64,000 bases of DNA. Origin: an uncultured beta proteobacterium. GTDB lineage: Bacteria; Pseudomonadota; Gammaproteobacteria; Burkholderiales; Rhodocyclaceae. Within the stretch, counting starts at the first letter, position 1, and every line of letters begins with the position of its first letter. The stretch spans positions 36,030-100,029 of the forward strand of contig CAVTQL010000021.1 in the NCBI GenBank assembly GCA_963736845.1, read 5' to 3'. Below are positions 3,793 through 63,920 of this stretch, one piece after another. The notes under the pieces are model-generated. The model ran no database searches. It was not told the origin of the DNA and was given only the letters and a program-made list of their open reading frames with translations. A program made the translations under genes and the position numbers.

Positions 3793-4184
3793 AGGCGCGC
3801 GACTTTCCCGGACGCGGCAGCCAGCTCAACGTGCTCGGCGGCCCGCTGCTGACGTGCAGCGATGCGCCGTTGACCGGGTTCTTCCGCGATGGCTGCTGCA
3901 ATACCTCTGAAGACGATCTCGGCAGCCACACCGTCTGCGTCGTGCTGACCGCCGAGTTCCTCGAATTCTCGACGTCGCGCGGCAACGACCTGTCCACGCC
4001 GCGCCCAGAGTTCGATTTCCCCGGCCTGCAGCCGGGTCAGCGCTGGTGCCTCTGCGCCGCGCGCTGGCTGGAGGCGTATCGCGCCGGCAAGGCGCCGCGC
4101 GTCTCGCTCAATTCGACCAACCAGGCGGCGCTGGAAATCGTCCCGCTCGAACTGCTCAAGCAGCACGCCATCGACCTGCACTGA
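3789..4184 (+). CDS. DUF2237-family conserved protein
   Basis: 131-aa ORF with a GTG start overlapping the iscX stop. The motif LTGFFRDGCC.....D.G.H.VC...T.EFL matches my recollection of DUF2237. Confidence 0.7.
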   Translation: MKARDFPGRGSQLNVLGGPLLTCSDAPLTGFFRDGCCNTSEDDLGSHTVCVVLTAEFLEFSTSRGNDLSTPRPEFDFPGLQPGQRWCLCAARWLEAYRAGKAPRVSLNSTNQAALEIVPLELLKQHAIDLH

Positions 4185-4208
4185 CGGCGCGCTGCGGCGC
4201 TTGGCCTT

Positions 4209-6208: not shown

Positions 6209-6431
6209 GGCTCGCCTCGCGAGTGGGTGGTATCGACGTCCCGCCGTAGCCGGGTTGCCAGACAAAGGCGGGAGGGTTCGCAGGGGGCCATTCTTTGCCG
6301 CGTCCGCAGCCCTGTCAATGCCGCATTCCGGGAGGGGTGGCATCCCCCTTTCACGCCGCGGCCGGCATGAAGGCCCAGTCGAGCCGCTCGGCGACGAGCG
6401 GCGGCACCAGCGCCGCAGACGACGAGATCCA

Positions 6432-8891: not shown

Positions 8892-11800
8892 TCAGGTCGT
8901 GAGCTGGCGAATCATGTCCTTGACCGCGGCCACCTTGTCGCCGAGGGCCGGGCAATGGCGCAAAAGCGCGATTTTATCCTGCCCGGCCAGCTTGTAGGTC
9001 CGGTTTTTCTGGATCAGCGCGATGATCCTGGCCGGGTCGACCGGCGGATTGCGGGAGAACTCCGGGCCGAACTGCAGCGTGATCTGGTCGGCCGTGGCGT
9101 CCAGCTTCTGCACGCACAGCGGCTTGACCAGCAGGCGCAGGCGGTGGGTGGCGAGCAGCGACTGCGCCTGCAGCGGCAACTGGCCGAAGCGGTCGATCAG
9201 TTCCTCCTGCATCGCGTCGAGTTCCTCGCCGGCTTCGCAGTTGGCGAGGCGCTTGTACAGCGTCAGGCGTTCGTGCACGTCCGGGCAGTAGGCGTCCGGG
9301 AGCAGGGCGGGGGTGCGCAGGTTGATCTCGGTGCTGATTCCGAGCGGCTGCGTCAGGTCGACCGCATCCACCACCTTGCCCTGGCGCAATTGCGCGACGG
9401 CGCGGTTGAGCATCTCGGTGAACAGGTTGAAGCCGACTTCCTGCATCTCGCCCGACTGGTTGTCGCCGAGCACCTCGCCGGCGCCGCGGATTTCCAGGTC
9501 GTGCATGGCGAGGAAGAAGCCGGAGCCGAGTTCCTCGGACATCTGGATCGCTTCGAGGCGCTGCTTCGCCTGCTTGGTCATCGCCGCGTCGTCGTGCACC
9601 AGCAGGTAGGCGTAGGCCTGGTGGTGCGAACGGCCGACGCGGCCGCGCAGCTGGTGCAACTGGGCAAGGCCGAACTTCTCGGCGCGGTTGATCAGGATGG
9701 TGTTGGCGTGCGGGTTGTCGATGCCGGTCTCGATGATCGTCGTGCACAGCAGCAGGTTGGCGCGCTGGCCGGTGAAGTCGCGCATGACGCGTTCCAGCTC
9801 GCGCTCGTTCATCTGGCCGTGGCCGATGACGGTGCGCGCCTCGGGCACCAGCTTTTCCAGCTTTTCACGCATGTTGGCGATGGTGTCGACCTCGTTGTGC
9901 AGGAAATACACCTGGCCGCCGCGCTTCAGTTCGCGCAGCACCGCCTCGCGGATGATGCCGTCGGAGAACCGGGAAACGAAGGTCTTGATCGCCAGCCGCT
10001 TCTGCGGCGCGGTGGCGATCACCGAGAAGTCGCGCAGGCCTTCCATGCTCATCGCCAGCGTGCGCGGGATCGGCGTCGCGGTCAGGGTCAGCACGTCGAC
10101 CTCGGCGCGCATCGCCTTCAGCGTTTCCTTCTGGCGCACGCCGAAGCGGTGCTCCTCGTCGATGACGACGAGGCCGAGGCGGCTGAACTTGACGTCCTTG
10201 CCGATCAGCTTGTGCGTGCCGATGATGATGTCGATCTTGCCCTCGGCCAGTTCCTGCAGCGCCTGCGCCGATTCCTTCGCCGTCTTGAAACGGGAGATTT
10301 CGGCGATCTTCACCGGCCAGTCGGCGAAGCGGTCGACGAAAGTCTGGTAATGCTGTTCACAAAGCAGCGTCGTCGGGCACAGCACGGCCACCTGCTTGCC
10401 GCCGGCCACCGCGCAGAAGGCGGCGCGCAGGGCGACCTCGGTCTTGCCGAAGCCGACGTCGCCGCAGACCAGCCGGTCCATCGGCTTGCCCGAGCGCATG
10501 TCGTCGATCACCGCGGCGATGGCGGCGGCCTGGTCGCTGGTTTCCTCGAAGCCGAAACCGTCGGCGAAGGCTTCGTAGTCGTTCTCGTGGAAGCTGAAGG
10601 CGTGGCCCTCGCGGGCGGCGCGGGCGGCGTACAGCGTCAGCAGTTCGGCGGCGGTGTCGCGCGCCTGCTCGGCGGCCTTGCGCTTGGCCTTTTCCCACTG
10701 GCCGGAGCCGAGCGTGTGCAGCGGCGCGGCTTCCGGCTCGGCGCCGGAATAGCGCGAAATCACGTGCAGCTGCGCCACCGGCACGAACAGCTTGGCCTCG
10801 TTGGCGTAGTGCAGTTCGAGGAATTCCTGCTCGCCCAGGCCAAGCTCCATGCGCACGAGTCCGCGATAGCGGCCGATGCCGTGGCTTTCATGGACCACCG
10901 GATCACCGACCTTGAGCTCGGTGAGATCCTTCAGCCAGTTGTCGAAGCTCGCCTTGCGCGCTGCTTCGCGGCGGCTACGGCGCGGCGCGCCGGCGTACAA
11001 CTCGGTTTCGGTGATGAAGGCGAGGCCGGGCAGGGCGAAACCGGCATGCAGCGGCCCGACGCCCAGCGCCAGCGGCGCATCGCCCGCCGCGAAACCGGCG
11101 AAGTCGGCTGAGGCAGCCGGGCGCAGGCCGTGTTCGGCCAGCATCGCCGCCAGCGTCTCGCGCCGGCCGGCCGATTCGGCGAGCAGCAGCACGCGGCCGG
11201 GATTCGTGGCGAGGTAAGCCTTGAGCCGGCCCAGCGGATCGTCGGCACGGCGATCGACCGCGACATCGGAAACCGTACAAACCGGGGACAGACCACGGTT
11301 TTCGTCGTTAAAACCGTGGTCTGTCCCCGGTTGGTTCGGTTGTTTGGCCGAAATGACCAGTCGACCGTAGCTTTTGGCCGCCGCGAAGAACACCTCGTCG
11401 GACAGGAACAGTTCCTCGGGCGGCAGCAGCGGCCGCGCCTTGTCGCCCTGCAGCAGGTTGTAGCGCGAGCGGGTGTCCTTCCAGAAGGCGGCAATCGCGC
11501 CCGGCGCGTCGCCGTGGGTGACGAGTACCGCATCCGCCGGCAGGTAGTCGAACAGCGTGGCCGTTTCATCGAAGAAGAGCGGCAGGTAGTACTCGATGCC
11601 GGCGCTGGCGATGCCGGTGGAAACATCCTTGTAGATGCCCGACCTGGCCGGGTCGCCCTCGAAGACCTCGCGGAAGCGCTGGCGGAAGTGCGTGCGGCCC
11701 TTGTCGTCGAGCGGGAATTCGCGCGCCGGCAGCAGGCGCACGTCCGGCACCGGGTAGATCGTGCGCTGGGTATCGACGTCGAAGGTCTTGATGCTCTCGA

Positions 11801-12414
11801 TCTCGTCGTCGAACAGGTCGAGCCGGTACGGCACCGGCGAACCCATCGGGAAGAGGTCGATCAGCCCGCCGCGGATCGAGTATTCGCCCGGCGACACCAC
11901 CTGCGTCACGTGGGCGTAGCCGGCCAGCGTCACCTGGCCGCGGAATTTCTCGGCATCGAGCCGTTCGCCCTTCCTGAAGGCGAAGGTGTAGGCGGCGAGG
12001 AAGGCCGGCGGCGCCAGCCGGCACACCGCGGTCGACGCCGGCACCAGCAGGATGTCCAGTTCGCCTGCGCATCGCCGCCCACAAGGTGGCGAGGCGCTCG
12101 GAGACGAGATCCTGGTGCGGCGAGAAATGGTCGTAGGGCAGCGTCTCCCAGTCCGGCAGCAGCCGCACGCGCAGCCCCGGCGCGAACCACGGGATCTCGT
12201 CGAGCAGCCGCTGCGCGTCCGCCGCGCTCGCCGTCACCACCGCCAGTAGCCGCCCGCCGGCACGCCCGGCGATCTCCGCCAGCGCCAGCGCGTCGGACGA
12301 CCCGGCCAGCGTCGGCAGGTCGACACGCATGCTGGCCCGGGGCAGGGCGGGGAGGGAAAGGAGCTGGGTGGGGGCGGACACGGATGCGTGGGGATGGTGA
12401 AGCGAGGGCGGCAT
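8892..12414 (-). CDS. mfd: transcription-repair coupling factor Mfd, one frame break near 12065; start uncertain (12414 or 12330)
   Basis: ORF 8892-12044 has the helicase motifs (LVCGDVGFGKTEVALRAAF, VIDEEHRFGV, LTATPIPRTL, QLRGRVGRS). The N-terminal part is in ORF 11566-12456 (..LLPDWETLPYDHFSPHQDLVSERLATLW). Confidence 0.93.
11280..11332. repeat. perfect 23-bp-stem / 7-nt-loop palindrome embedded in the mfd coding frame
   Basis: aaccggggacagaccacggtttt-cgtcgtt-aaaaccgtggtctgtccccggtt. The arms are 11280-11302 and 11310-11332 by manual count. The mfd ORF reads through it (..KQPNQPGTDHGFNDENRGLSPVCTV..). Confidence 0.9.
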
Positions 12415-51040: not shown

Positions 51041-53170
51041 ATGTTTAATGTCGTGAAAAAGACCTTCGCCTACGGGGACCATCAGGTCACCCTCGAAACC
51101 GGCGAAATCGCCCGCCAGGCTGGCGGTGCAGTACTCGTTTCCATGGAAGAAACCGTGGTTCTGGTCACCGTCGTGGCCGCCAGGAACGCCAAGCCCGGCC
51201 AGGATTTCTTCCCGCTGACTGTCGATTATCAAGAGAAGACTTATGCCGCCGGCCGCATTCCCGGCGGCTTCTTCAAGCGCGAAGGCCGTCCTTCCGAAAA
51301 GGAAACGCTGACCTGCCGCCTGATCGATCGCCCGATTCGCCCGCTGTTCCCGGACGGCTTCTACAACGAAATCCAGGTCATCGCCACGGTGATGTCGCTG
51401 AACCCGGAAGTCGATTCCGACATCCCGGCTATGCTTGGCGCCTCGGCCGCGCTGGCGATCTCCGGTGTGCCGTTCAACGGCCCGATCGGCGCTGCCCGCG
51501 TCGGTTACATCAACGGCGAGTACGTGCTGTGCCCGACCCTGAGCCAGCTCAAGGACAGCCAGCTCGACCTCGTCGTCGCCGGCACCGAATCCGCCGTGCT
51601 GATGGTCGAGTCCGAGTGTGATCAACTGTCCGAGGAAGTCATGCTGGGCGCCGTGGTGTTCGGTCACACCGAATCGCGGAAGGCGATCGACGCCATCAAC
51701 GAGCTCGTCGAAGAAGCCGGCAAGCCCGAGTGGGACTGGACGCCGGCGCCGAAGAACGAGCCGCTGATCGCCAGGGTGCACGAACTCGCCAGGCCCGAGT
51801 TCGAGGCCGCCTACAACATCACCGTCAAGCAGACGCGGACCCAGGCGGTCAAGGAAATCTACGCCCGAGTCATCGCCGCCGTTACCGAAGGCGTCGAAAA
51901 TGCACCGTCGGGCGGCGAGGTCATGGACATCATGTTCGCCCTCGAAGGCGAAATCGTGCGTGGTCGCATCCTGTCGGGCGCCCCGCGCATCGACGGCCGC
52001 GACACCCGTACCGTGCGTCCGATCACCATGCGTTCCGGCGTCCTGCCGCGCACCCATGGTTCGGCGCTGTTCACGCGTGGCGAAACCCAGGCGCTGGCCG
52101 TGGCCACGCTCGGTACCAACCGCGACGAACAGATCATCGATGCGCTGGCCGGTGAGTACCGCGACCGCTTCATGCTGCACTACAACATGCCTCCCTTCGC
52201 TACTGGCGAAACCGGCCGCGTCGGGTCGCCCAAGCGTCGTGAAATCGGTCACGGCCGTCTCGCCAAGCGCGCGCTGCTGGCCGTGCTGCCGAACCCGGAA
52301 GATTTCTCCTACTCGATGCGCCTGGTTTCGGAAATTACCGAATCCAACGGTTCTTCCTCCATGGCTTCCGTCTGCGGCGGCTGTCTCGCCCTGCTGGACG
52401 CCGGCGTGCCGCTCAAGGCGCATGTGGCCGGTATTGCCATGGGCCTGATCAAGGAAGGCAACCGCTTCGCCGTGCTGACCGACATCCTCGGCGACGAAGA
52501 TCACCTCGGCGACATGGACTTCAAGGTGGCCGGCACGACTGCAGGTATCACCGCGCTGCAGATGGACATCAAGATCCAGGGCATCACCAAGGAAATCATG
52601 CAGGTGGCGCTGGCCCAGGCCCAGGAAGCCCGTCTGCACATCCTCGGCCTGATGCAGGAATCCGCTGCCGGCCCGCGCGAAGAGATGTCGGCCTACGCGC
52701 CGCGTCTGTACACCTTCAAGATCAATCCGGAAAAGATCCGTGACGTGATCGGCAAGGGCGGCGCCGTCATCCGCGCGCTGACCGAGGAAACCGGCACCAC
52801 GATCGACATCCAGGACGACGGCACGATCACCATCGCCGCCACCAGCGGCGAAGCAGCGGCCCATGCCCGTTCGCGCATCGATGCGATCACCGCCGAAGTC
52901 GAGATCGGCAAGATCTACGAAGGTACCGTGCTGAAGATCCTCGACTTCGGTGCGATCGTTTCCGTGCTGCCGGGCAAGGATGGTCTGCTGCACATCTCCC
53001 AGATCGCCCAGGAACGCGTCAACAAGGTCGAAGACTACGTCAAGGAAGGCCAGGTCGTTCGCGTCAAGGTTCTCGAAACCGACGACCGCGGTCGCGTCAA
53101 GTTGTCGATGAAGGCTGCCGCGGCGGAAGAGGGCACCAGCCCGCCGCAACCCGCCGTCCAGCCGCAATAA
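51041..53170 (+). CDS. pnp: polyribonucleotide nucleotidyltransferase (PNPase)
   Basis: 709-aa uninterrupted ORF with two RNase PH domains plus KH and S1 (..[17 protein letters not shown]..). Confidence 0.96.
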
Positions 53171-53191
53171 CGGGCATACCCCGGAAAGCAC

Positions 53192-53215
53192 GAAGGGCAC
53201 CGCGAGGTGCCCTTC
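53192..53215. terminator. bidirectional hairpin between convergent pnp and dksA
   Basis: gaagggcacc-gcga-ggtgcccttc (10-bp stem). Confidence 0.65.
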
Positions 53216-53272
53216 CTTGTTGCCGGTGGTCAATTGTGTCAGCGTCGACCGCCGGACTCGCCTTGGCCGGCC

Positions 53273-53698
53273 TTACTTGGCCATCTGCTTCTCTTTCAGC
53301 TCGTCCAGGGTCTTGCAATCGATGCACAGCGTCGCCGTCGGGCGGGCCTCCAGGCGTTTGATGCCGATCTCGACACCGCACTTGTTGCAGAAGCCGTAGT
53401 CGCCGCTGTCGATGCGCGCCTGCGTTTCGTTGATCTTCTTGATCAGCTTGCGCTCACGGTCGCGGTTGCGCAGCTCGATGGCGATGTCCGTTTCCTGGCT
53501 GGCGCGGTCGTTGGGGTCGGCGAATACCGTTGCCTCGTCCTGCATGGTGTGCACCGTGCGGTCGATATCCTCGCTCAATTCCTTCTTGAGCGTCTCGAGT
53601 ATCTTGCGAAAATGCGCAAGCTGCTTGGCGCTCATGTACTCCTCGCCCTTCTTGGGCTCGTACGGCGCAAAATGCTTGTGAAGCAGGTCTTCAGCCAT
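53273..53698 (-). CDS. dksA: RNA polymerase-binding regulator DksA
   Basis: 141 aa with a coiled coil containing the DxxDxA-type tip (ADPNDRASQETD) and a C4 zinc finger (CNKCGVEI...CIDC). Confidence 0.93.
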   Translation of the reverse strand: MAEDLLHKHFAPYEPKKGEEYMSAKQLAHFRKILETLKKELSEDIDRTVHTMQDEATVFADPNDRASQETDIAIELRNRDRERKLIKKINETQARIDSGDYGFCNKCGVEIGIKRLEARPTATLCIDCKTLDELKEKQMAK

Positions 53699-53836
53699 TT
53701 GATTGCGTGTTCCAGAGACGAAAGAGGCGATTAAATATCAGAAAGCCGGGCGGGCTGCAAGGGAAGTTTCTCGGCCCGTGATACGCCCTTGATCTGGTGC
53801 GGGTTTCCGGCCGATGATAGAATCCATTTCCTATGT

Positions 53837-53913
53837 CGGGGCGTAGCGCAGCCTGGTAGCGCATCTGCTTTGGGAGCAGAGGGTCGTGAGTTCGAATCCC
53901 ACCGCCCCGACCA
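53837..53913 (+). tRNA. tRNA-Pro (anticodon TGG)
   Basis: CGGGGCGTAGCGCAGCCTGGTAGCGC..CTGCTTTGGGAGCAG..TTCGAATCCCACCGCCCCGACCA folds as a cloverleaf by hand with one A-C mismatch in the T stem. CCA is encoded. Confidence 0.85.
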
Positions 53914-53938
53914 ATTATTAAAGCGCTTTTCCCCTCGG

Positions 53939-54015
53939 GTGCCCGTAGCTCAACTGGATAGAGCAGCTGCCTTCTAAGCAGCAGGTCGGGGGTTCGAGTC
54001 CCTCCGGGCACGCCA
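53939..54015 (+). tRNA. tRNA-Arg (anticodon TCT)
   Basis: GTGCCCGTAGCTCAACTGGATAGAGCAGCTGCCTTCTAAGCAGCAGGTCGGGGGTTCGAGTCCCTCCGGGCACGCCA has anticodon loop CTTCTAA. CCA is encoded. Confidence 0.88.
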
Positions 54016-54067
54016 CTTTCGGTTCACTTATCTTGTCAGGTCTTCAATCCAGATTGTGGGAACAGAG

Positions 54068-55080
54068 ATGATTCTTGTCACAGGCGGTGCCGGGTATATC
54101 GGTTCGCATACCGTCGTCGAAATGCTGACCGCGAACCTTGATTTGCTGATTCTCGACAACTTTTCGAACAGTTCACCCAAGGTGGTCGACGCGATTGAAC
54201 GCATTGTCGGCAAGCGACCGCTCGTTGTTCGACGACGACATCCGGGACAAGGCCGGGCTGCGCCGGATATTCGGCGAATATCCGATTGATGGCGTCGTTC
54301 ATTTCGCGGGACTGAAGGCCGTCGGCGAGTCGGTTGAGCGCCCCTTGCACTATTACGGCAACAATGTCGCCGGTTCCCTCGCCCTGTTCGAGGCGATGGC
54401 CGAGGCCGGAGTCTACCGGCTGGTCTTCAGTTCCTCGGCAACGGTGTACGGCGATCCGCATAGCGTGCCGATCCGTGAGGATTTCCCGCTGCAGGCGACC
54501 AATCCCTACGGCCGCACGAAACTGATGATCGAGGAGATGTTGCGCGATCTGGCGGCCGCTGATCCGCGCTGGCGGGTGGCGCTGCTGCGCTATTTCAACC
54601 CGGTGGGGGCGCATCCGAGCGGAATGATCGGGGAAGATCCGCAGGGTATTCCCAACAACCTCATGCCCTATGTGGCGCAGGTGGCTGTCGGCCGGCGCCC
54701 CGAACTCTCCGTTTTCGGTGGCGACTATCCGACGCCGGATGGAACCGGGGTGCGCGACTATATCCACGTCGTTGATCTGGCTCGCGGTCACCTCGCCGCA
54801 CTCAACGTCCTGGACAAGTTGCCGGGAGCAGTGCCGATCAACCTTGGGACCGGTCGCGGTTATAGCGTGCTCGAGGTCGTGGCAGCTTTCGAGAATGCCA
54901 GCGGCAGAAAGAGTGCCGTTTCGCATCGTTGACCGCAGGCTGGGTGATATTGCTGCCTGCTATGCCGATTCGTCACTTGCTCAGGACCTGCTAGGCTGGT
55001 CGGCTGGCCGGGGGATGGCGACGATGTGTGAGGATTCGTGGCGCTGGCAGTCGACCAACCCGACGGGATTCGATAGGTGA
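54068..55080 (+). CDS. galE: UDP-glucose 4-epimerase, 2 frame breaks (near 54222 and 54905)
   Basis: [16 protein letters not shown].. (Rossmann fold) ..[12 protein letters not shown].. ..[12 protein letters not shown].. (YxxxK). It continues through ORFs 54195-54932 and 54670-55080. Confidence 0.88.
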
Positions 55081-55344
55081 TCCGGCTACCGCGATTTCCA
55101 ATTGGGGTCGGTGTTGAAAGTTCGTGAAATATCTCCTTGTCAGACCAGGCGTAGCCTGTAGAATCGGCGATAAGGAAGGGTCTGCAAGACTGTCGGTTTT
55201 CTTTACATTGTCGGCGAGAGTCAGGGTCTGCATTTCAATGGGTCCGAAGGAAATCATTGATTGTTAATTGAAATTCTTTGCTTGCATGAAAATTGCTTTA
55301 TTATTCGTGCAGATTGTCCGTTGCTATTAGTCAGGTGAAAAGAG

Positions 55345-55932
55345 ATGAGTGACCAATCAAATCAAATCGGTTCAGGCCAAAGCGGGATGAACTCGAAGGC
55401 GGCGGGGCGTCGCCGTTTCGTTCGCGGTGTCGGGATTGCGACCCCGGTCATCCTGACAGTCACCTCGCGCTCGGCATTGGCAGCCACTTGCCTTTCCCCT
55501 TCGGCACAGGCGTCGATAGCTCTCGACAACAGCAGGCCCGATCGCCGGAGAGGGTCTGAGTGCTTTGGAAGGGGTCCCGAGTTTTGGAAAGAGGCCTCGA
55601 ATGAAAAGAGTGGTCATCACGGACACTGGAAAGGTTGCGGCGCAGAGCACAGATATTTTTCCGCGTGCTTTGCCGCTCACGATGGCTTTCATGGAAAGAA
55701 ATTGAAAGAGGTCTTGGCATCGCAAGGCCATGACGACCCCAGCAAACTGGGGGTGTATTTGTGCGCCGCATGGTGCAACCTGAATACGGGAAGAGTGCCT
55801 GCTTCCGTACTTAGCCTCGAGACCATGAAGAGAATGTGGGCCGGCCGTAACGGAAGTTATCAGCCGGTTCCCGGAGTCTTCTGGGGTGCGCCTCAAATCG
55901 TTGAGTACATCAAGAGCGCAACGATGGTCTGA
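55345..55932 (+). CDS. Tat-signal protein of unknown function with six Cys after the signal; first gene of the HPr-kinase-related operon
   Basis: The 195-aa ORF follows an AT-rich spacer. It has AAGRRRFVRGVGIATPVILTVTSRSALAATC (twin-arginine motif plus h-region). Its stop overlaps the next ATG (TGATG). Confidence 0.6.
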   Translation: MSDQSNQIGSGQSGMNSKAAGRRRFVRGVGIATPVILTVTSRSALAATCLSPSAQASIALDNSRPDRRRGSECFGRGPEFWKEASNEKSGHHGHWKGCGAEHRYFSACFAAHDGFHGKKLKEVLASQGHDDPSKLGVYLCAAWCNLNTGRVPASVLSLETMKRMWAGRNGSYQPVPGVFWGAPQIVEYIKSATMV

Positions 55933-56180
55933 TGTCGTTCGCGAGTGACTCAGAAACGGGGGTTGGCATCGCCAACCCCACTGTTTTTTTGCATTTCTCT
56001 TTTCGGCTGGTCGATGACGGCGTGCTTGTGTTTGACGCTGAAACTGGAGACACGTCTCTGCTACCGTTCGACCGGTCGCTTGCGCTTGATTTCTTGCGAA
56101 AGCGGATCGCGGATAGCGCCACGGGAGACTGCGAGCTCTCAGGGTTCATTTCCAGGCTAGGGTATTTCCCAGATTGCTGA
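55932..56180 (+). CDS. PqqD-family (RRE-like) small protein
   Basis: 82 aa. ..FRLVDDGVLVFDAETGDTSLLPFDRSLALDFL.. resembles the PqqD / RiPP-recognition-element pattern. Confidence 0.65.
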   Translation: MSFASDSETGVGIANPTVFLHFSFRLVDDGVLVFDAETGDTSLLPFDRSLALDFLRKRIADSATGDCELSGFISRLGYFPDC

Positions 56181-57088
56181 CGGTTCAGGACGTTTCCGGA
56201 AGGGACCTTGGGGAGGCGATGCGGCAGGGTCGCTTTCGTCTTGACATCGGACGCCTCAGAATCAAGATCAAGAGCGGTATCCCCCACTTTCCACTAGTAT
56301 TCAGAACGCTGTATGGCCGGCATTCGTGTGCAGTGAACGGGGGCGAATACGACTTCGATATCTGTATTGCGCCGCCCAACTGGCTTCGTCGTCACATTGC
56401 ACGCAATGTGGTGTTCGAGCTTTCGGGGGAACGTCCCTTTCTTCCTGTCGATGCGGGGCATGCACACGCCTTGTTCGAGTGGGGATTGAACTGGACCATC
56501 GGATCGTTCGCCCATAATTATCTGATACTTCACTCGGCTGTCCTGGAAACCCGGGGCGCCGGCGTTCTTCTCTCGGCAGTCTCGGGTAGCGGCAAGAGCA
56601 CCCTCGCAGCAGAACTCGCGCTGAGCGGCTGGAGACTGCTCTCGGACGAACTTGCCCTGCTTGACGGGAAGCTCGAACTGATTCCTTGTGTGCGACCGGT
56701 CAGTCTAAAAAATACATCCATCGATCTCATCCAGAGCAGGCACCCCGAGGCCGTCTTTGGGCCTCTGGCGAAAAATACGCACAAGGGGAGTATTGCGCAC
56801 CTGCCCGCGCCCGGCGATTCGATCCGACGGGGCAGCGAGAGTGCCACGCCCCGTTTGATCGTCTTCCCGAAATGGACGGACGGCGCATCGCTGCGCATGC
56901 GTGCCGTTGGCCAGGGTCAGGCCGCCATGCGACTGATCGACCAGTCGTTCAATTACTCGACCCTCGGGGAATCTGGCTTTCAGAGACTGGCCGGGCTGGT
57001 CAGTTCTGCCGAGGCCTGGGAGATCGAGTACTCCTCGCTGGATGAAGCCAGGAATGCATTGGATGAACTTGTCGGGCACTATGATTGA
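56174..57088 (+). CDS. HPr-kinase-related P-loop protein (HprK-related kinase A type)
   Basis: ..LILHSAVLETRGAGVLLSAVSGSGKSTLAAELALSGWRLLSDELALL.. has the HprK C-terminal-domain-like Walker A context. The TTG start at 56174 overlaps the PqqD-like stop; the alternative ATG is at 56219. Confidence 0.7.
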   Translation: MLTVQDVSGRDLGEAMRQGRFRLDIGRLRIKIKSGIPHFPLVFRTLYGRHSCAVNGGEYDFDICIAPPNWLRRHIARNVVFELSGERPFLPVDAGHAHALFEWGLNWTIGSFAHNYLILHSAVLETRGAGVLLSAVSGSGKSTLAAELALSGWRLLSDELALLDGKLELIPCVRPVSLKNTSIDLIQSRHPEAVFGPLAKNTHKGSIAHLPAPGDSIRRGSESATPRLIVFPKWTDGASLRMRAVGQGQAAMRLIDQSFNYSTLGESGFQRLAGLVSSAEAWEIEYSSLDEARNALDELVGHYD

Positions 57089-58148
57089 ATCTTCGCCATT
57101 GACTCGCTTCCTGCGGGATCGGGGGGTAGCGGACACATTCTCCGCCGAGGAATGGAGCCTCATGCTTGCCGAGGCGCGGCACGCGGGAATGCTGGCACGG
57201 ATTGCTCACTGGATACCCGGATCGTCAATGGCTGGAAATGTCCCGCCACGCCATCAAGGCAGCCTGGTGGCAGCCTTGGTCCAATCGGGAGCCTTTCGCC
57301 GCGATGTGCAGCGGGAACTGCGATCGATCAGCATTGCGCTGGTCCATGTCGAGACGCCGATCCTGCTGCTGAAAGGTGCATCGTATGTGGCTTTGGGTTT
57401 GCCTGTTGCGGATGGCCGGAGCTTCAGTGATATCGATCTGCTCGTTGCGGAGAAACAGATTCGCTTTGTCGAGAGCGAACTGATGCTTGGTGGCTGGATT
57501 ACGGGCCAGCTCGATGCGTACGACGACCGCTACTACAGACAGTGGTCCCATGAGATTCCGCCAATGACTCACACGCATCGCGGCACCACGATCGACCTTC
57601 ATCATTCACTTGTCATGCCAACATGCCGCATTGCTGTCGATTCCTCCAGAATGGTCAATGAAGCAGTGCCAATTGCCGGGAGCGGGCGTTTCTGGCGGTT
57701 GCGGGATGAAGATATCCTGCTGCATGCGGCCGCCCATTTGCTGCTGAACGGGGAGTTTGATCGCGGTCTGCGAGATCTCTGCGACATTGATCTGCTCTTC
57801 CGCCATTTTTCATCGGTCTCGGCTGAGTTCCCGAAACGCCTGATCACCCGTTCCGCCGAGGTCGGGCTCGACGCGATTCTGCGGCAAGCGCTCTATTTGG
57901 CTCGGCGGTTCTTCTCGACCCCGGTTGATGACCAGTTACTGAAGCAGGAGCCGACCGCCTTCGTTAAGCTGGTCGAAAAGGCGGTTTACTCACGTCACCC
58001 TGACACGCGAATTCGGGGACAGGCGATGGCGGACTGGCTGTTGATGGTTCGGGAATTGTCGCTGCGTTTGCCGCCAAACTTGCTTCTGATCCACCTGTTA
58101 CACAAGATGTGGGTCGGGTTTCAACCGGTCAAGCGGGTGCAGGAATGA
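57081..58148 (+). CDS. uncharacterised nucleotidyltransferase family protein (NTP_transf_5-like)
   Basis: MIESSPLTRFL.. (ATG overlaps the upstream stop: ATGATTGA) ..LLLKGASYVALGLPVADGRSFSDIDLLV.. ..HRGTTIDLHHSL.. Confidence 0.65.
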   Translation: MIESSPLTRFLRDRGVADTFSAEEWSLMLAEARHAGMLARIAHWIPGSSMAGNVPPRHQGSLVAALVQSGAFRRDVQRELRSISIALVHVETPILLLKGASYVALGLPVADGRSFSDIDLLVAEKQIRFVESELMLGGWITGQLDAYDDRYYRQWSHEIPPMTHTHRGTTIDLHHSLVMPTCRIAVDSSRMVNEAVPIAGSGRFWRLRDEDILLHAAAHLLLNGEFDRGLRDLCDIDLLFRHFSSVSAEFPKRLITRSAEVGLDAILRQALYLARRFFSTPVDDQLLKQEPTAFVKLVEKAVYSRHPDTRIRGQAMADWLLMVRELSLRLPPNLLLIHLLHKMWVGFQPVKRVQE

Positions 58149-58161
58149 GGGAAACGACTGG

Positions 58162-58932
58162 TTACGGCGACTTGACCAACAGCTCTTTCAGGTAATTCGC
58201 CGGTATCGCGTAGGCGATTCCGGACGGCTGACTCAGCGCTGCTTCCTTGCTTCCCTTGATGAACACCATATTGATGATGCCGATGACTTCGCCGCTGCTG
58301 GCATCGAATACCGGGCTTCCGCTGTTGCCGGGGTAGGCCGTGGCATCGAGCTGGAAGATGTTGAATGCTCCGCTCTTGAGCTGGCGAACCAGTTTTTCAT
58401 TAACTTGGCGCGCGTTCGCCGCCGGCAGCGCAATCGGAGTGATCGACGACACCATGCCGCGATGGGTCACCGGCGAGAAGCCGAGCGCTCCCCCGATCGG
58501 GAACCCGGTAAATCCCACCAGTTGGCCTTCGCGTACCGATTCGGAGTTGCGCAGCTTGAGGGAGGGGAGGGAAGGACCGTCGATGCGGAGGACAGCGAGA
58601 TCGTGCTCGCGATCCTTGTTCACGACATGGGCGCGACGAACCTGCGTTTCTCCCGAGCCATTACGCGACTGAATGACCAGCACCGGGGCATCGGGGTCGC
58701 TACTGTCTGGAACGACATGGGCATTTGTCGCGATGAGGTTGCCGCTGGCGACCACAAAGCCCGTGCCGCGCATGGCGAACTGCGGGCTGTCGGTCTTCTT
58801 GTAGGTGCCGACGACGACGACCGAAGGCTTGACCTGCTGGATGGTGTCGGACATCTCGGCTGACGCCACACTCGAGAACAGGCAGGCAAGGAATGCCAGC
58901 AGGAATCGGGGATGGGGCCGGGCGCGAATCAC
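58162..58932 (-). CDS. secreted trypsin-like (S1C) serine protease without a PDZ domain
   Basis: Signal peptide, then catalytic His in ..ATNAHVV.., Asp in ..DLAVLRI.. and Ser in ..GNSGSPVF.. Confidence 0.85.
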   Translation of the reverse strand: MIRARPHPRFLLAFLACLFSSVASAEMSDTIQQVKPSVVVVGTYKKTDSPQFAMRGTGFVVASGNLIATNAHVVPDSSDPDAPVLVIQSRNGSGETQVRRAHVVNKDREHDLAVLRIDGPSLPSLKLRNSESVREGQLVGFTGFPIGGALGFSPVTHRGMVSSITPIALPAANARQVNEKLVRQLKSGAFNIFQLDATAYPGNSGSPVFDASSGEVIGIINMVFIKGSKEAALSQPSGIAYAIPANYLKELLVKSP

Positions 58933-59833: not shown

Positions 59834-61118
59834 TTACAGACGCCAGAGTTCAACACCCGATCCGGCAAAGGCTGCAGTTTCGAACATGCTCTTCACATCG
59901 GTTATCACACCATCTTTTTCCAGTTTAGACAAGAAATCGCCAACTGGCCGATCTCTGAATTCGCGATGGTTGACCGCGGCAACAATGGCTCCAGCCTTGG
60001 GCAGATCGTCCCAGGCACGTAGATCGACTTTATACTCGTGAAACGCCTCCTTTGCGTCCGCCACCGGGTCATGAACAATGACTCGGGCGCCGTAGGATTC
60101 CAACTCGCGAATGACGTCGATGACCCGTGAGTTGCGCAGATCGGGACAGTCTTCCTTGAATGTAAGACCCAGAACGATGATCGGGGAGTCCTTGACCGGA
60201 TGACCTCTCCGCACCAGTTGCTTGATCGTCTGTTCGGCTACAAATTTACCCATGCCGTCATTGATACGGCGACCAGCCAGGATTACTTCGGGATGGTAGC
60301 CAAGTTTCTGGGCCTTGTGGGTCAGATAGTAGGGATCGACACCGATGCAGTGGCCACCGACCAAACCGGGGCGGAAGGGCAGAAAATTCCACTTCGTTCC
60401 GGCTGCCTGAAGGACCTCGAGCGTATCGATCCCGATCTTGTCGAAGATGATGGCCAGCTCGTTCATAAGGGCGATGTTGAGGTCGCGCTGAGTGTTTTCG
60501 ATGACCTTTGCGGCTTCCGCCACCTTGATGGAGGAAGCCGGGAATACGCCGGCCTTGATCACGCTTCCATAGATCTCGGTGACCGTTGCCAGCGTCTCGG
60601 GCGTGTCGCCCGAGACCACCTTGACGATCTTGGTGACGGTACGTTCCTTGTCACCCGGATTGATGCGTTCCGGAGAATAGCCTACAAAGAAATCGGTCTT
60701 CCATTTCTTTCCCGAGTATTGCTCAAGGATGGGAATGCAGACTTCCTCGGTGGCTCCCGGATACACCGTCGAACTCGTAAACGACGATTGCCCCCTGCTT
60801 CAGATTCTGACCAACGGCGCGGGAGGAACTGACCAGCGGACTGAAATCAGGCTGATGTGCGTCGTCGACAGGAGTTGGCACAGCGACGATCACGAAATCT
60901 GCTTCTCTCAACGCACTTGGGTCGATACCCATCTCGAGCAGGGTGGCAGCCTTGAGGTCTTCGGTGCTTACCTCGCCGGTCGGATCGAAATGCTGTTTGT
61001 AGCACGCGACCTTCTCGGCAGACAGGTCGACACCGATGGTACGGAATTTCTTGCCGAATTCAACGGCCAACGGAAGTCCCACATAACCCAGTCCGACAAC
61101 AGCAATGGTTTTCATCAT
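59834..61118 (-). CDS. UDP-N-acetyl-hexosamine (TviB/WbpA-like) nucleotide-sugar dehydrogenase, one frame break near 60770
   Basis: MMKTIAVVGLGYVGLPLA.. ..VYESTVYPGATEE.. after removing one base, and ..GGHCIGVDPYYL.. (catalytic Cys). Confidence 0.85.
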
Positions 61119-61144: not shown

Positions 61145-63920
61145 CTAGAGTGTCCCCTGCAAGCGCCTTACTTCAGCGTGTTCGGAGAATTTGTTGCCCA
61201 GCTTGGCGAGGGCATCGAGTTCCACACGGGCATCATCATTGCGCCCAGCACGGATCAGAATCTTGGCCAGATTAAGGCGAATTTCAGCAGCCTGCGGAGC
61301 GAGCTTCAGCGCCTTGAGCAGGAGTTCGATCGCGCCTGCGGTGTCCCCTTGCTCTGCCATCAGCATGGCCTGCGTGTCCATGAATGCCGGCTGGTTAGGA
61401 GCGAGTCTGTTGGCCTTTTCTGCGTATTCCAGAGCCTTCGGGGACTTCATCTGCCCTGAAACCCATGCCAGATTGTTGAGGGCGAGCGCATTCTCTGGCT
61501 GAATGTCAACTGCTGCACGATAGTAATGCATGGCAGCAGGGTAGTCCTTTCTTGCCGTCGCGAGATCGCCCGAGTAGAGGCGGAATGCAACATCCTTCGG
61601 GTGGTCCTTCAGCCAGGAGTTGGCAGCCTTGTCAGCATCGGCAGTTTTTCCGGAGGATAGCAGGGCTCTGTGCAGCTTTATGGCAAGCTCCGACGCGGGT
61701 GCATGGCGGACTCCGTTCCTGTAGGCGACTGCGGCATCTGACCAACGCTTTTCAGAGGCATGAATATCACCTTCGAGTATGTAACCAACCGCCTCGTTGG
61801 GGCGCTGCCCTTCAATCTCCCGTGCAATGGCAAGCGCGTCGATGGTCTTGCCTTGATCCAGCAGTATCTGGACAAGCTTTCGCTGCGCCTCGAACACATC
61901 GGGCCTGATCTCCAGCGCCTTGCGCAAGTTCTTGACGGCCTCATCCGTGTTCTTGTTGTTCAGCTGAATGTCCGCCATGCGCAGATATGGAAGGGGCGAG
62001 GATGGCTGCACCGCGGCCAGTTTTCCATAGGTGGCCAAGGCCTTGTTGACTTCTCCGGCTCTTGCTTGGGCGCGCCCGGCGGCATCCAGCAGTTCGGGTT
62101 TGTCAGGGATCGCTGCGAGCGCTTCCTGCGCGGCAGAATCGGCCTTCTTTGGTTCGTCGTTTGCCATGTAGAAGTCAATCAATGCCAGTCTGGGGGCCAA
62201 TACGTCGGGATTTGCGCTGACTGATTTCTTGATCAACATTAGGGAATCGGCAGCGTTGCCGCCCGTCGCCGTGGTCAGTTTGGCCAGTGAGAGCAACGCG
62301 GGGATATTCTTTGGATCTGCCGCCAGTACTTCCTCAAAGCGTTTGCGCGCCCGGGCGGGATTCCCTTCAGCCATGTCCATTGATGCCAGGCTGGCAACTG
62401 CAGGTAAATAGGCAGGATTGATTGCTACGGCCCTCTCGAAGCTCTGGCGAGCAGCCGCGTTGTCCTTCTTGGCCAGCAGGACACGTCCCTGCAAGCTATA
62501 GGTCGCAGGATCGTCAGGCTTCTTCTTCTGGAGGGTGTCTATGGCGCTCAGAGCATTGTCCAGCTCATTGCGATGCAGATGGGAAGCGATGAGCGCCTGA
62601 TCTGCAGTGATCCCTTCATCGACACGGGATATCTGTTCAAATTCACTTGCGGCTTCGGTGACCCTCCCTTGAGCCATATGGGCAACTGCCACGGCCGTTC
62701 GCTTCGTCAGGTCATTCGGATCGAGCTTGCTGGCTCTATGGAGATACTCCTCGGCTTTCTTTGGATCACCAGCTTGCAGGTACACCTCTCCGACCAGCAC
62801 CAGAAAGTCCGGATCCTCCTCGATCTTGCCCAGTACCGGTTGCAGGGTGGCGAGTGCTTTGGCAGGTTGACCGGCGCGCAGATAGTTCGTTATCAACAGA
62901 CCGCGCGCAAGCCGCAGGTCCGGTGCCAGTTGCAGGGCCTTGTTGAGGTAGGACTCGGCCTGAAAATACGCGCCAAGTTGATACTCGGCCGCGCCGGCAA
63001 GTTGCAGTGCAGTCGGGTCGTTCGGCGCGGACTTTAGCAGTTGCTGCGCCAGAGTCTGCACGGTTCTGTACTCCTTGCGCTGGTATGCCATCTGCGCTTC
63101 GAGATAAATCGTCTGGGGATGATTGGGGGCAACCTTCTTCAGAGTTTCCAGTTGCTGTCCGGCATCCTCAGCGGCCCCTTTCTGCATCAGAGCAGAGATT
63201 ATTGCCGAGTGCGCTGGAATGAAGTCCGGCCGGCTCTGAAGAGCCATCTTGTATAACCGGATAGCGCCATCCTGATCACCCGTGAGGGCGAGTAGAGAAC
63301 CCTTGAGCATCAGCGCTTCGTGATTTGCTGGTTCTTTCGCCAGTATGCGGTCGACAGTCGCCAGGGAGCCCGAAATGTCCCTGTCCGCTGCCTTGCCTCT
63401 GGCTTCGACAATGAGTGCGGGTGCAAAATCCGGCTGGGCAGCCAGCGCGGCGGCCAGCGCGGCCTTGGACGCTTCAACGTTGCCAAGCACCTGGTAGGCA
63501 AGACTCAGTGTCGTATTGAGGTTGGCCTTTGCTTGGCCAGGCAGCTCCGTCCGAGAGAACTCGTTGAACAACCTTTTTTGCCTGGCCATTGCGGAGGAGG
63601 GCTTGGGCCAGCAGGGGAATTGCCAGCTCGGGGGCATACTTGAGGTCAAGTGTCTTTCTCAACTCGAGTTCCGCGCCTTGAGGATCGCCAGCTGCGAGCA
63701 ACGCCTTGCCGAGAAGGAAGCGCGCCTCGCCGGAGTTCGGATTCTTTTGCAGCGCGTTCTTGAACTGGATGACGGCAGCTTTGCTGTCGTTCTTCGCAAG
63801 GTAGTCCTTTCCTGACGCGATGAGCGAATCGGGATCTCTGGCGTCACACCCGGCAAACAGGGTCGTCACAAGAAGTGCGGCGAGGGTGACGCGAAGGTAG
63901 ATGGCTGGCTTTTTCAACAT
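61145..63920 (-). CDS. prsT: PEP-CTERM-system TPR-repeat lipoprotein (PrsT-like), one frame break near 63590
   Basis: MLKKPAIYLRVTLAALLVTTLFAGC (lipobox), then about 900 aa of TPR repeats. A sigma54-regulator gene lies upstream. Confidence 0.8.

Follow-up and report, generated by a model that had tools for sequence, protein, structure and literature searches.

Introduction

Linear polyphosphorylated peptides (LPPs) are RiPPs of Bacillota whose core machinery consists of a discrete PqqD-type RRE, an HprK-like kinase, and an NTP_transf_5 (PF14907) protein (Popov et al., Nat Commun 2026, PMC13381572). In the authors' own table, 65 of the 152 LPP kinases are labelled TIGR04352, and the kinase LppK polyphosphorylates Ser3 of the core, which lies beside the leader cleavage site (PMC13381572). 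LPP precursors measure 35-200 aa, have a conserved N-terminus and are encoded in polysaccharide loci; LppN was inactive in heterologous LPP experiments, and the authors call LPPs Bacillota-restricted (PMC13381572).

Related enzymes act on lasso peptides of the paeninodin/pseudomycoidin type, in which an HprK-like kinase (PadeK/PsmK) phosphorylates or polyphosphorylates a Ser of the linear precursor. The PF14907-type protein PsmN is needed to add hexoses to the phospho-Ser, and its DxD motif is essential, although the authors of the PsmN study noted that it may instead make the substrate for another transferase. Bufferins, i.e., MNIO-modified RiPPs with Sec signal peptides, represent a further type in which the precursors fold (PMC11626156). 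Lastly, several pairings of HprK-like and PqqD-like proteins are curated in NCBIfam/TIGRFAMs, namely, SynChlorMet (ScmC/ScmD) and HPr-rel-B, whose partner genes differ (in SCM they encode radical SAM enzymes), and the HPr-rel-A system (TIGR04352 and TIGR04353). The latter names a kinase and a chaperone only and has no function attached.

In this study, the HPr-rel-A system was analysed in a window of 64,000 nucleotides (the whole stretch of DNA presented above), together with related genome and metagenome loci. The four-gene cassette found here is that system, and includes a predicted secreted protein, ORF1, for which the curated system has no model. The earlier note had described the system as one of no assigned function; this stands for the proteobacterial cassette, which is uncharacterised, but not for its LPP and lasso-tailoring relatives, for which Ser polyphosphorylation and phosphate-linked hexosylation have been demonstrated.

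Operon layout and four-gene linkage

The ORF listing of the window contains four plus-strand ORFs at 55345-58148: ORF1 (55345-55932, 195 aa), ORF2 (55932-56180, 82 aa), ORF3 (56174-57088, 304 aa, with a TTG start), and ORF4 (57081-58148, 355 aa). They had been described as chained by overlapping stop and start codons, and reading of the sequence confirmed all coordinates and overlaps, namely TGATG at 55930-55934 (ORF1/ORF2), a TTG at 56174-56176 with a TGA at 56178-56180 (ORF2/ORF3), and ATGATTGA at 57081-57088 (ORF3/ORF4). These overlaps are not due to chance, since the same junction spacings recur across related loci, with -4 nt in 27 and -7 nt in 12 loci for ORF2/ORF3, and -4 nt in 39 and -8 nt in 5 loci for ORF3/ORF4. 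The ORF1/ORF2 overlap is restricted to the window's clade, and the other loci have a short gap at this junction (median 15 nt). ORF1 has a strong SD sequence; those of ORF2 to ORF4, which have overlapping starts, are weak.

The four genes are linked in both directions. An ORF1-family gene adjoins the kinase gene in 79 of 80 kinase-anchored genome loci, the sole exception being truncated, and the PqqD-like and kinase genes follow ORF1 in each of the 67 ORF1-anchored metagenome loci with at least ~530 nt downstream, the NTase gene coming next wherever the contig extends. A PF14907 gene lies downstream of the kinase gene in 78/80 loci. When all ORFs of 90 aa or more within up to +/-10 kb of the cassette were clustered for the 80 loci, no further universal neighbour gene emerged, and the annotated recurrent neighbour families of these loci include neither a dedicated peptidase nor a dedicated exporter. 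The cassette is spread over Beta- and Gammaproteobacteria as a self-contained unit, of which ORF1 is an obligate fourth member. The triad proposed in the earlier note is thus conserved as far as the kinase, the PqqD-like protein and the NTase are concerned, but the true unit is a tetrad, and the ORF1 family is the conserved fourth gene that a neighbourhood analysis had been suggested to look for. Since ORF1 is both an obligate member and the most likely substrate, the system is no longer left without a candidate product, contrary to what had been stated.

The placement of the operon in an EPS/PEP-CTERM locus was corroborated. The minus strand of the window encodes PrsT (61145-63649), with a score of 762 bits where the cutoff is 312, and the genes around the cassette include GalE, a TviB-like dehydrogenase, a TIGR03013 glycosyltransferase, and other EPS genes; exosortase A is absent from the window. 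Among 59 long loci, 47 have one or more XrtA-system markers (PrsT, PrsK, PrsR, chain-length determinant, Tyr autokinase, and others) within 10 kb, and 12 have none within that distance. Neither a lasso cyclase (Asn-synthetase-like) nor a transglutaminase-like B/B2 protease occurs in the operon or among the recurrent neighbours of the 80 loci, in agreement with the earlier observation for this operon.

The three enzyme-like proteins

ORF3 (56174..57088, plus strand) is assigned to HprK-related kinase A, as had been proposed, with a TIGR04352 score of 307 bits (E=9.7e-92, model positions 2-280 of 280) that exceeds the curated cutoff of 200 bits; matches to TIGR04249 and TIGR04355, from the SynChlorMet and HPr-rel-B group of pairings, are weak and far below the cutoffs. 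It carries a P-loop, GSGKST, at 56585-56602, and S157-D158-E159 forms the metal-site region. Profile comparison aligns it with the HprK/P structures 1jb1 and 2qmh over the P-loop and the 'ADD'-aligned segment, and the P-loop and acidic-site residues do not vary in the A1 alignment.

ORF2 (55932..56180, plus strand, 82 aa) appears to be a divergent, shortened peptide chaperone of the PqqD-family/RRE type. The window copy scores below the curated TIGR04353 cutoff (16.7 bits, E=0.011, against 35 bits), and the match covers only model positions 1-31 of 74. An hhalign comparison of ORF2 from the window's clade with a TIGR04353-family alignment that excluded this clade gave a probability of 94% (E=1.2e-7, residues 23-59), and an iterative HMM search links the window's ORF2 to its positional homologues, of which 43/45 match TIGR04353, 12/45 match PF05402 and one matches TIGR04248 (far below cutoff). 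The ORF2 family profile also finds TfuB1 and TbiB1, two RREs of lasso systems. In the AF2 model, the topology is b1-b2-b3-a1-a2, i.e., one of the three canonical RRE helices is missing, and the best Foldseek matches are RREs, at an E-value of only ~0.1. Profile comparison and gene position thus support homology of the window's ORF2 to the TIGR04353 PqqD/RRE family, so that the earlier PqqD-like call holds at the level of homology and position, but not by the curated cutoff. Since this copy is below the cutoff and lacks one RRE helix, its competence for peptide binding is uncertain. With ORF3 above its TIGR04352 cutoff and nearly all ORF2 homologues in TIGR04353, the link that had been drawn to the 'HPr-rel-A system' of NCBIfam was upheld.

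The nucleotidyltransferase-fold assignment of ORF4 (57081..58148, plus strand) to PF14907 (NTP_transf_5) was likewise confirmed by a profile match (E=3e-42). It shares this Pfam family with enzymes of the LppN/PsmN type, and the motif KG...GRxFxDxD, which includes the DxD residues D117 and D119 (57429-57437, plus strand), is at least 93% conserved over 79 sequences. A longer ORF from 57042 is also possible; homologues favour the start at 57081.

ORF1, a predicted secreted protein with two invariant serines

ORF1 (55345..55932, plus strand) resembles a precursor, with a Tat-type leader, a disordered Ser-containing segment and a helical globular domain. It belongs to a family of 1603 representative clusters (about 1600 at 50% identity), and has no match in Pfam, NCBIfam (release 20) or PDB. 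The AF2 model shows residues 1-56 as disordered and gives a pLDDT of ~90 for residues 70-195; a Foldseek search with this model returned no match, and the predicted globular domain has, as modelled, a fold without a solved relative.

The twin-arginine motif R22-R23-R24-F25 (RRRF) is encoded at 55408..55419 on the plus strand. R22 and R23 are invariant both in a diverse alignment of 42 sequences and in 77/77 aligned family members, and the family consensus, S-R-R-x-F-x-K, is followed by a hydrophobic region and then C-x2-PSG-x2-S. The n-region is long (median 26 aa), the h-region is weakly hydrophobic (mean KD hydropathy 0.82), and the c-region holds a basic residue in 36/42 members; an AxA-type site is predicted as ALA|A in the window's ORF1, and these features are those of a Tat-type signal. 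The short and weak TIGR01409 model (TAT_signal_seq) is matched at E=0.005 by only 1/42 members and not by the window's ORF1. The invariant RR pair and the consensus agree with the previous designation of ORF1 as a Tat-signal protein.

Two serines, S53 and S57 (S-x3-S, 55501..55515, plus strand), are proposed as phosphorylation site(s) on the basis of conservation and disorder. They lie ~7 and 11 residues downstream of the predicted signal-peptidase site, in a segment of low pLDDT, and are kept in 78/80 (S53) and 77/80 (S57) family sequences. In the 42-sequence alignment, R22, R23, S53 and S57 are the only invariant columns, and the spacing from RR to Ser is 29-34 residues in 36/42 members. Per column, conservation is higher in the leader segment (2.65 bits) than in the globular domain (1.65 bits), and within the conserved folded domain N145 is invariant. 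The conservation of S53 and S57 could also have a structural or other purpose. No [Y/W]xxP motif of the kind bound by lasso and LPP RREs is present in the ORF1 leader, and a mirror-tree test gave no co-variation between ORF2 and the leader beyond phylogeny.

Comparison with described systems

By analogy, the cassette appears to be a proteobacterial counterpart of the peptide-phosphorylation system that has been shown experimentally only in Bacillota. The three core enzyme families are alike in both (the LPP identities being taken from the domain table of the paper), as are the position of the modified or candidate Ser a few residues past the leader cleavage site, a precursor that may reach 200 aa and is conserved at its N-terminus, leader removal of the signal-peptidase-I type (in the cassette predicted only), and the setting in a polysaccharide locus without a lasso cyclase. 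However, the annotated recurrent neighbour families of the 80 loci include no counterparts of the SipW-like archaeal-type signal peptidase LppS and the MsbA-like exporter LppD, and the ORF1 leader is of the Tat type and lacks the LPP motif YxxPxVLxHQxIxFETxxS. The hosts are Beta- and Gammaproteobacteria, the locus is of the XrtA/PEP-CTERM type, and the promoters are of the sigma-54 type. Moreover, the C-terminal part of ORF1 is a conserved folded domain instead of the variable tail of LPPs, and by this contrast ORF1 could be a functional partner instead of a substrate. The LPP chemistry was established by experiment, whereas that of the cassette is predicted.

With respect to paeninodin/pseudomycoidin-type peptides, the corresponding kinase and DxD motifs are kept in ORF3 and ORF4, but the cyclase and the B2 protease are lacking, and the target Ser is C-terminal in the lasso precursors, whereas the candidate serines of ORF1 lie close to the N-terminal end of the mature protein. 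In bufferins, as would be the case here, a general-secretion signal peptide takes the place of a specialised exporter and peptidase, the mature portion adopts the fold of a small protein, and modification takes place in the cytoplasm before export; they differ by their MNIO and DUF2063 enzymes, thiooxazole chemistry, and a Sec-type instead of a Tat-type signal.

Proposed function and alternatives

On balance, the cassette is considered to be a RiPP-like, four-gene protein-modification system linked to EPS, in which ORF1 is the substrate of RRE-guided Ser modification and is exported via Tat. From the gene content, families, linkage, conservation pattern, promoter type and genomic context described in this study, we infer the substrate, the modified residues, the ORF4 chemistry, the export route and the biological role as follows. 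At its N-terminus, newly made ORF1 would carry a long Tat-type signal that doubles as a recognition 'leader'. In the cytoplasm, ORF2 would bind pre-ORF1 by this unfolded N-terminal region and present the neighbouring disordered segment to ORF3, which would phosphorylate or polyphosphorylate S53 and/or S57; this step is proposed because the LPP kinase polyphosphorylates a Ser beside the leader cleavage site. ORF4, with its intact DxD motif, may extend the phosphate, most likely with a hexose or a different group activated by a nucleotide, on the model of PsmN in pseudomycoidin; given the inactivity of LppN, PsmN is the sole guide for this putative role. The housekeeping Tat pathway would then export the folded, modified protein and signal peptidase I would cut off its leader, the two standing in for the SipW-like peptidase and ABC exporter of LPPs.

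If true, this would extend RRE-guided Ser (poly)phosphorylation, so far demonstrated only in small Bacillota peptides, to a large, unannotated family of secreted folded proteins from Beta- and Gammaproteobacteria that occur abundantly in activated sludge, soil, and freshwater, and a RiPP pathway would rely on the general Tat pathway and signal peptidase instead of an exporter and peptidase of its own. The long-orphaned 'HPr-rel-A system' gains a concrete candidate substrate narrowed to two residues, and its function is therefore directly testable. A bolder version, which is speculative and as a whole unlikely, holds that the Tat signal is a RiPP leader, that the PqqD-like protein is a new kind of Tat 'proofreading' chaperone, which retains pre-ORF1 in the cytoplasm and brings in the kinase and the PF14907 enzyme, that these two assemble a phospho-glycan (or a different phosphodiester-linked group) on S53/S57 of a folded protein whose fold is previously unseen, and that the exported product, as a structural or priming component, connects exopolysaccharide with cells when flocs and biofilms form in an XrtA/PEP-CTERM-dependent way.

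The conserved folded domain of ORF1 with its invariant N145 is unlike typical RiPP cores, and the leader lacks the [Y/W]xxP motif. The triad could therefore modify another substrate, e.g., an unannotated small peptide or PEP-CTERM proteins, whose genes share both the loci and the sigma-54 promoter type of the cassette, and in that case ORF1 would have an accessory role in the periplasm, e.g., as a receptor or carrier of the product, or as its partner in immunity or processing. This is held to be unlikely: the operon is compact (overlaps or ~15 nt gaps) and leaves no room for a further conserved ORF, no other neighbour is conserved, and the strict 1:1 linkage in both directions extends to the 12 long loci without an XrtA marker nearby. 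Invariant serines in a disordered segment by a highly conserved leader are also hard to explain for an accessory protein. The same serines and the obligate ORF1 linkage would be left without explanation if a sugar, a lipid-linked oligosaccharide or an EPS intermediate were activated or decorated by the kinase and the nucleotidyltransferase, with ORF2 as a scaffold and ORF1 as a secreted EPS-handling protein. The surrounding EPS genes (GalE, the TviB-like dehydrogenase, the TIGR03013 glycosyltransferase) fit such a non-protein substrate, as does PF14907, which has no proven direct substrate and whose member PsmN may make the substrate for another transferase; yet PqqD/RRE proteins are peptide-binding modules, in line with the TfuB1 and TbiB1 matches of ORF2, and every characterised RRE-associated HprK-like kinase phosphorylates a peptide serine, making this reading improbable.

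Phosphorylation of the ORF1 N-terminus might also be reversible and leave no permanent mark, with ORF2 holding the signal peptide and Tat export being gated by the metabolic state. Canonical HPr kinase/phosphorylase is bifunctional and metabolite-sensing, ORF3 keeps the P-loop and acidic motif, Tat substrates often have dedicated signal-peptide-binding chaperones, and the serines are near the cleavage site. Such a regulatory switch is nevertheless given little credence, as it does not account for the obligate PF14907 enzyme, catalytically intact by its conserved motifs, and related RRE-linked kinases install a stable (poly)phosphate that remains attached when the product is exported. The notion of a degenerate or cryptic lasso-peptide cluster, with cyclase and protease elsewhere in the genome, draws on the first description of HprK-like kinases and PF14907 enzymes as lasso tailoring enzymes and on lasso B1 proteins being the closest solved relatives of the RRE profile. 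It is largely refuted and highly improbable, considering the lack of a recurrent cyclase or B2 protease neighbour up to +/-10 kb in 80 loci, the conservation of the cassette as a self-contained unit across Beta- and Gammaproteobacteria, and the size (195 aa), folded domain and signal peptide of ORF1, which is not a lasso precursor.

Promoter region and expression

The AT-rich promoter region that had been noted ahead of the operon was confirmed as to its composition: the intergenic region 5' of ORF1 (55081..55344, plus strand) has a GC content of 44%, and its last 90 nt one of 33%, against 64% for the window. A single sigma-70-like site was found upstream of ORF1 (55137-55164), which does not exceed the chance expectation. 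A variant sigma-54-type promoter element, TTGCAT-N5-TTGCT, is located at 55282..55297 on the plus strand, 48 nt 5' of the ORF1 ATG; its -24 element has TG where the canonical one has GG, and the identical variant is common to the window and two related loci, L001 and L002. Matches of this type (at least 9/11 to TGGCAC-N5-TTGCT within 200 nt 5' of ORF1) occur in 46 of 71 related loci, compared to ~2% of shuffles and 1/80 coding controls. Regulation of PEP-CTERM genes by RpoN has been documented in the literature, and the promoter sequences indicate that the cassette belongs to a sigma-54-type XrtA/PEP-CTERM polysaccharide regulon, the element of the window being a candidate variant.

Expression would accordingly be tied to the sigma-54/PrsK-PrsR XrtA/PEP-CTERM exopolysaccharide regulon, and the probable site of action of the ORF1 product is therefore the periplasm or matrix, while EPS or flocs are being formed. 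If true, the poorly understood XrtA/PEP-CTERM machinery of floc formation would gain a post-translationally modified protein, which is relevant to wastewater treatment.

A terminator-like hairpin with a T-run (55959..55990, plus strand; 9-bp stem with 7 GC pairs) lies 27 nt 3' of the ORF1 stop, within the clade-specific 5' end of ORF2. Such hairpins are not enriched across the family (20/76 loci vs 22/76 and 7/76 in controls). In the window, L001 and L002 the hairpin is kept at -19 to -25 kcal/mol, and it is possibly an attenuator.

Organization of the cassette

Four consecutive open reading frames were recovered as described in the earlier note, namely ORF1 (55345-55932, +, 195 aa), ORF2 (55932-56180, +, 82 aa), ORF3 (56174-57088, +, 304 aa, with a TTG start), and ORF4 (57081-58148, +, 355 aa). 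The overlapping stop and start codons reported there are present in the sequence, i.e., TGATG at 55930-55934 between ORF1 and ORF2, TTG at 56174 ahead of the ORF2 stop codon at 56178-56180, and ATGATTGA at 57081-57088 between ORF3 and ORF4. Overlaps within the cassette are a conserved property and not a product of chance: among related loci, 27 have an ORF2/ORF3 junction of -4 nt and 12 one of -7 nt, as in the window, and 39 have an ORF3/ORF4 junction of -4 nt and five one of -8 nt, again as in the window. The ORF1/ORF2 overlap is confined to the clade of the window, other loci having a short gap at this position (median 15 nt). ORF1 is preceded by a strong SD, while the SDs of ORF2, ORF3, and ORF4 are weak and their starts coupled, which fits a substrate that is made in excess over its enzymes. 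The AT-rich region noted earlier upstream of ORF1 was also found, with a GC content of 44% overall and 33% in the final 90 nt, compared with 64% for the window. The cassette itself (55345-58148) has a GC of 0.55-0.59 and a GC3 of 0.61-0.66, below the window average of 0.64, which hints at a compositionally distinct segment of the EPS locus that was possibly exchanged horizontally.

ORF1 as the obligate fourth gene

The conservation of the cassette was assessed in 80 kinase-anchored genomic loci from Beta- and Gammaproteobacteria, in which ORFs were searched by iterative HMM; the closest relatives in this set are Dechloromonas MAGs (93-94% identity). An ORF1-family gene adjoins the kinase cassette in 79/80 loci, and in the sole exception the contig ends 26 nt ahead of the kinase. 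Its usual position is directly ahead of the PqqD-like gene; three loci have it just downstream of ORF4 instead. When all ORFs of at least 90 aa from the 80 loci were clustered, only the four cassette genes were universal, the next most common real families occurring in at most about 37 loci. For the reverse test, a distant branch of the ORF1 family, a tighter subgroup than the diverse alignment, supplied the mature domain on which 80 metagenome loci were anchored. Of these loci, 67 extend downstream by about 530 nt or further, and in all 67 the PqqD-like gene and the kinase directly follow ORF1; the nucleotidyltransferase comes next wherever the contig goes on. The linkage seen from both anchors indicates that the unit is an obligate tetrad; the three genes of the previously proposed conserved triad are indeed linked, and ORF1 has to be added to them.

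ORF1 is unannotated. A single-sequence family scan with E-values up to 10 gave no match, and ORF1 together with 41 diverse relatives gave none in Pfam and NCBIfam release 20 apart from one weak, generic Tat-signal match. The relatives are named 'hypothetical protein' in the database sources and carry no precomputed Pfam domain. A full-library profile search placed the family at 1603 clusters at 50% identity, nearly all of 180-240 aa. Neither the ORF1 profile searched against PDB sequences nor a Foldseek search of PDB with the ORF1 model returned a match or a meaningful structural relative, respectively.

Variations in ORF1 copy number were also encountered. The possibility of several tandem precursor genes per cassette was rejected, as it applied to only 4/160 loci, all four of which proved to be internal partial duplications. 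These longer homologues (L032 8801-9664, L057 8939-9685, L067 7272-8345, and L074 8770-9681, all in comparison loci) match the profile at about 8-113 and then again at about 50-189, so that the Ser segment is present twice, as is the beginning of the globular domain. A Methylomonas MAG locus (L060) contains two complete tandem cassettes (4097-6980 and 8929-11946), each with an ORF1-like gene, a kinase, and a nucleotidyltransferase, consistent with a cognate ORF1 for each enzyme set. In P0211, an 808 aa protein of the representative library, the globular region (profile 72-161) occurs six times in tandem; the domain can thus occur as a repeat outside its usual single-domain architecture.

Anatomy of ORF1

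Only R22, R23, S53, and S57 are invariant in an alignment of 42 sequences (mean column identity 19%); in a set of 80, S53 is retained in 78 sequences, S57 in 77, and N145 in 78. The N-terminus, to judge by its sequence, has the hallmarks of a Tat signal. It follows the consensus S-R-R-x-F-x-K, its n-region is long, with a median of 26 residues, and its h-region is weakly hydrophobic; the c-region includes a basic residue in 36/42 sequences, and an AxA/VLG-type cleavage site is predicted (in the window ALA|A, with residue 46 as the last of the leader). No part of the protein is better conserved than this leader, with 2.65 bits per column compared with 1.65 in the globular domain, and the distance from the RR pair to S53/S57 is 29-34 residues in 36/42 sequences. 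AF2 models residues 1-56 as disordered and residues 70-195 as a mainly helical domain, the latter with confidence (pLDDT ~90). A conserved Cys pair, C49 and C73, flanks the Ser segment; a lipoprotein reading of C49 was discarded, since no lipobox precedes it, the residues there being T, Q, H, M, K, and others. A mirror-tree/partial-correlation test for specific co-evolution of ORF2 with the leader gave a partial r of 0.10 vs 0.05, with no sign of co-variation beyond phylogeny.

The modification enzymes

The kinase and nucleotidyltransferase assignments of the earlier note were both borne out. ORF3 is a full-length HprK-related kinase A, scoring 307 bits against TIGR04352 (curated cutoff 200), and ORF4 belongs to PF14907/NTP_transf_5 (E=3e-42). 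The ORF3 family profile matches solved HPr kinase/phosphorylases over the P-loop and the acidic motif that follows it, and G138-T143 and S157-D158-E159 are invariant. PDB sequence searches with the single sequences of ORF3 and ORF4 gave no match; among these and the search with the ORF1 profile, only the kinase profile found HprK/P. In ORF4, the KG...GRxFxDxD motif is conserved at 93% or more.

The PqqD assignment of ORF2 held at the level of the family. Taken alone, ORF2 of the window scores 16.7 bits against TIGR04353, below the cutoff of 35 and over the first 31 model positions only. Positional homologues from other genomes match TIGR04353 in 43/45 cases and Pfam PqqD in 12/45, and a profile-profile comparison (hhalign) of the ORF2 clade with a family alignment that left out the window clade gave 94% probability (E=1.2e-7, residues 23-59). 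Against PDB, the family profile matches the lasso-peptide RREs TfuB1 and TbiB1; its top matches, designed helical repeat proteins, were dismissed as low-complexity artefacts. The window copy is missing about 20 residues ahead of the last helix, and its AF2 model of moderate confidence has the order b1-b2-b3-a1-a2, one helix fewer than a canonical RRE. RREs rank first in a Foldseek search with this model, at non-significant E-values (~0.1) and with low TM-scores, which are due to the only moderate confidence of the model. The positional homologues, the profile matches, and the shortened copy together identify ORF2 as a genuine but divergent, shortened member of the PqqD/TIGR04353 family.

Relation to known systems and proposed mechanism

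The cassette belongs to the HPr-rel-A system, a curated system to which no function is attached, and a literature search on the family names turned up no work on the function of the proteobacterial cassette. By analogy, the mechanistically closest known system appears to be that of the linear polyphosphorylated peptides (LPPs), RiPPs defined in Bacillota in 2026 (PMC13381572). In LPPs, the RRE presents the precursor, and core Ser3, directly past the leader cleavage site, receives up to four phosphates from the kinase; the domain table lists NTP_transf_5 as the NTP transferase, PqqD as the RRE, and TIGR04352 for 65/152 kinases, and the NTP transferase LppN was inactive in the experiments (PMC13381572). 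For pseudomycoidin, the PF14907-type PsmN is needed for the addition of one or two hexoses to a phospho-serine, in a DxD motif-dependent manner. RiPP-type precursors with a genuine Sec signal peptide that fold as small proteins are known from the bufferins (PMC11626156). The cassette falls outside the LPPs by peptidase, exporter, leader motif, and phylum: it lacks the LppS peptidase and the LppD exporter, neither of which is a recurrent neighbour in the 80 loci, the YxxP motif is missing from the ORF1 leader, and the authors describe LPPs and paeninodins as confined to Bacillota (PMC13381572). Unlike LPP precursors, ORF1 also has a conserved C-terminal domain.

The linkage of the four genes, their pattern of conservation, and the families to which they belong are observations, beside which we infer ORF1 as the substrate, the modified sites, the chemistry, and the export route of the cassette. 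In the proposed mechanism, the N-terminal leader of pre-ORF1 would be bound by ORF2, S53 and/or S57 would be phosphorylated by ORF3, and the phosphate may be extended by ORF4. The modified, folded ORF1 would exit via the Tat pathway and its leader would be removed by signal peptidase I, general export/processing machinery taking the place of LppS and LppD.

The two departures of ORF1 from LPP precursors, the leader motif and the conserved C-terminal domain, would also suit an accessory protein accompanying enzymes that act on another substrate, a reading considered unlikely. It is still less probable that the enzymes act on a non-protein substrate, and a reversible switch that gates export is given the same small chance. 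A cryptic lasso cluster, to which the RRE matches of the ORF2 profile might seem to point, is very improbable. Of the earlier interpretation, the operon, the kinase, and the nucleotidyltransferase stand, and the triad gives way to a unit with ORF1 as its obligate and unannotated fourth gene, which provides a specific and testable substrate hypothesis for the HPr-rel-A cassette.

Regulation and genomic context

A terminator-like hairpin, GGGGTTGGCATCGCCAACCCC, followed by a T-run is located at 55959-55990 (+), 27 nt past the ORF1 stop codon and within a clade-specific 5' extension of ORF2. It is kept in the window and in its relatives L001 and L002 (-19 to -25 kcal/mol) and is real only in this clade; a leaky terminator as a family-wide, RiPP-like feature was rejected, a hairpin with T-run being found in 20/76 loci compared with 22/76 and 7/76 in coding controls. 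The hairpin could reduce transcriptional read-through from the precursor gene into the enzyme genes, an effect that ribosomes reinitiating at the overlapping ORF2 start may relieve. Upstream of ORF1, 46/71 loci carry a promoter of the sigma-54 type, matching TGGCAC-N5-TTGCT at 9/11 positions or more, compared with about 2% of shuffles, and a PEP-CTERM gene in Aquincola is driven by the same promoter class under RpoN. The window (55282-55297) and its two closest relatives share an identical variant with TG for GG at -24, which leaves regulation in this clade uncertain.

The EPS/PEP-CTERM setting described previously was corroborated by PrsT in the window (61145-63649) and by at least one XrtA marker within 10 kb of the cassette in 47/59 long loci. 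Recurrent XrtA/PEP-CTERM neighbours are PrsT, PrsK, PrsR, the chain-length determinant, the Tyr autokinase, the ATPase, the TIGR03016 outer-membrane protein, a deacetylase, and the TIGR03013 glycosyltransferase; a secreted trypsin-like protease, an SLT transglycosylase, GalE, and a TviB-like dehydrogenase also recur. In the window, a secreted Trypsin_2 serine protease (58162-58932, -) is convergent with the cassette and ends 14 nt past the ORF4 stop codon. Its family occurs within 10 kb of the cassette in 37/80 loci and, not being universal, was kept out of the cassette; a role of the protease in the periplasmic processing of ORF1 or of other matrix proteins is possible.

Several flanking genes look frameshifted, unlike the four cassette ORFs, which are intact. 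Three overlapping ORFs, each in a different frame, together make up GalE (54056-55080, +), which most related loci encode in one ORF; the TviB-like UDP-sugar dehydrogenase is broken into two (59834-61118, -), and the PrsT ORF (-) begins only at model position 106. This suggests either pseudogenes or assembly indel errors. Housekeeping genes lie upstream of the EPS locus (51041-54015), i.e., PNPase (51041-53170), a DksA-like gene (53273-53698, -), tRNA-Pro (53837-53913), and tRNA-Arg (53939-54015). The polysaccharide locus starts directly after the tRNA pair, such a pair being a common boundary of variable genomic regions.
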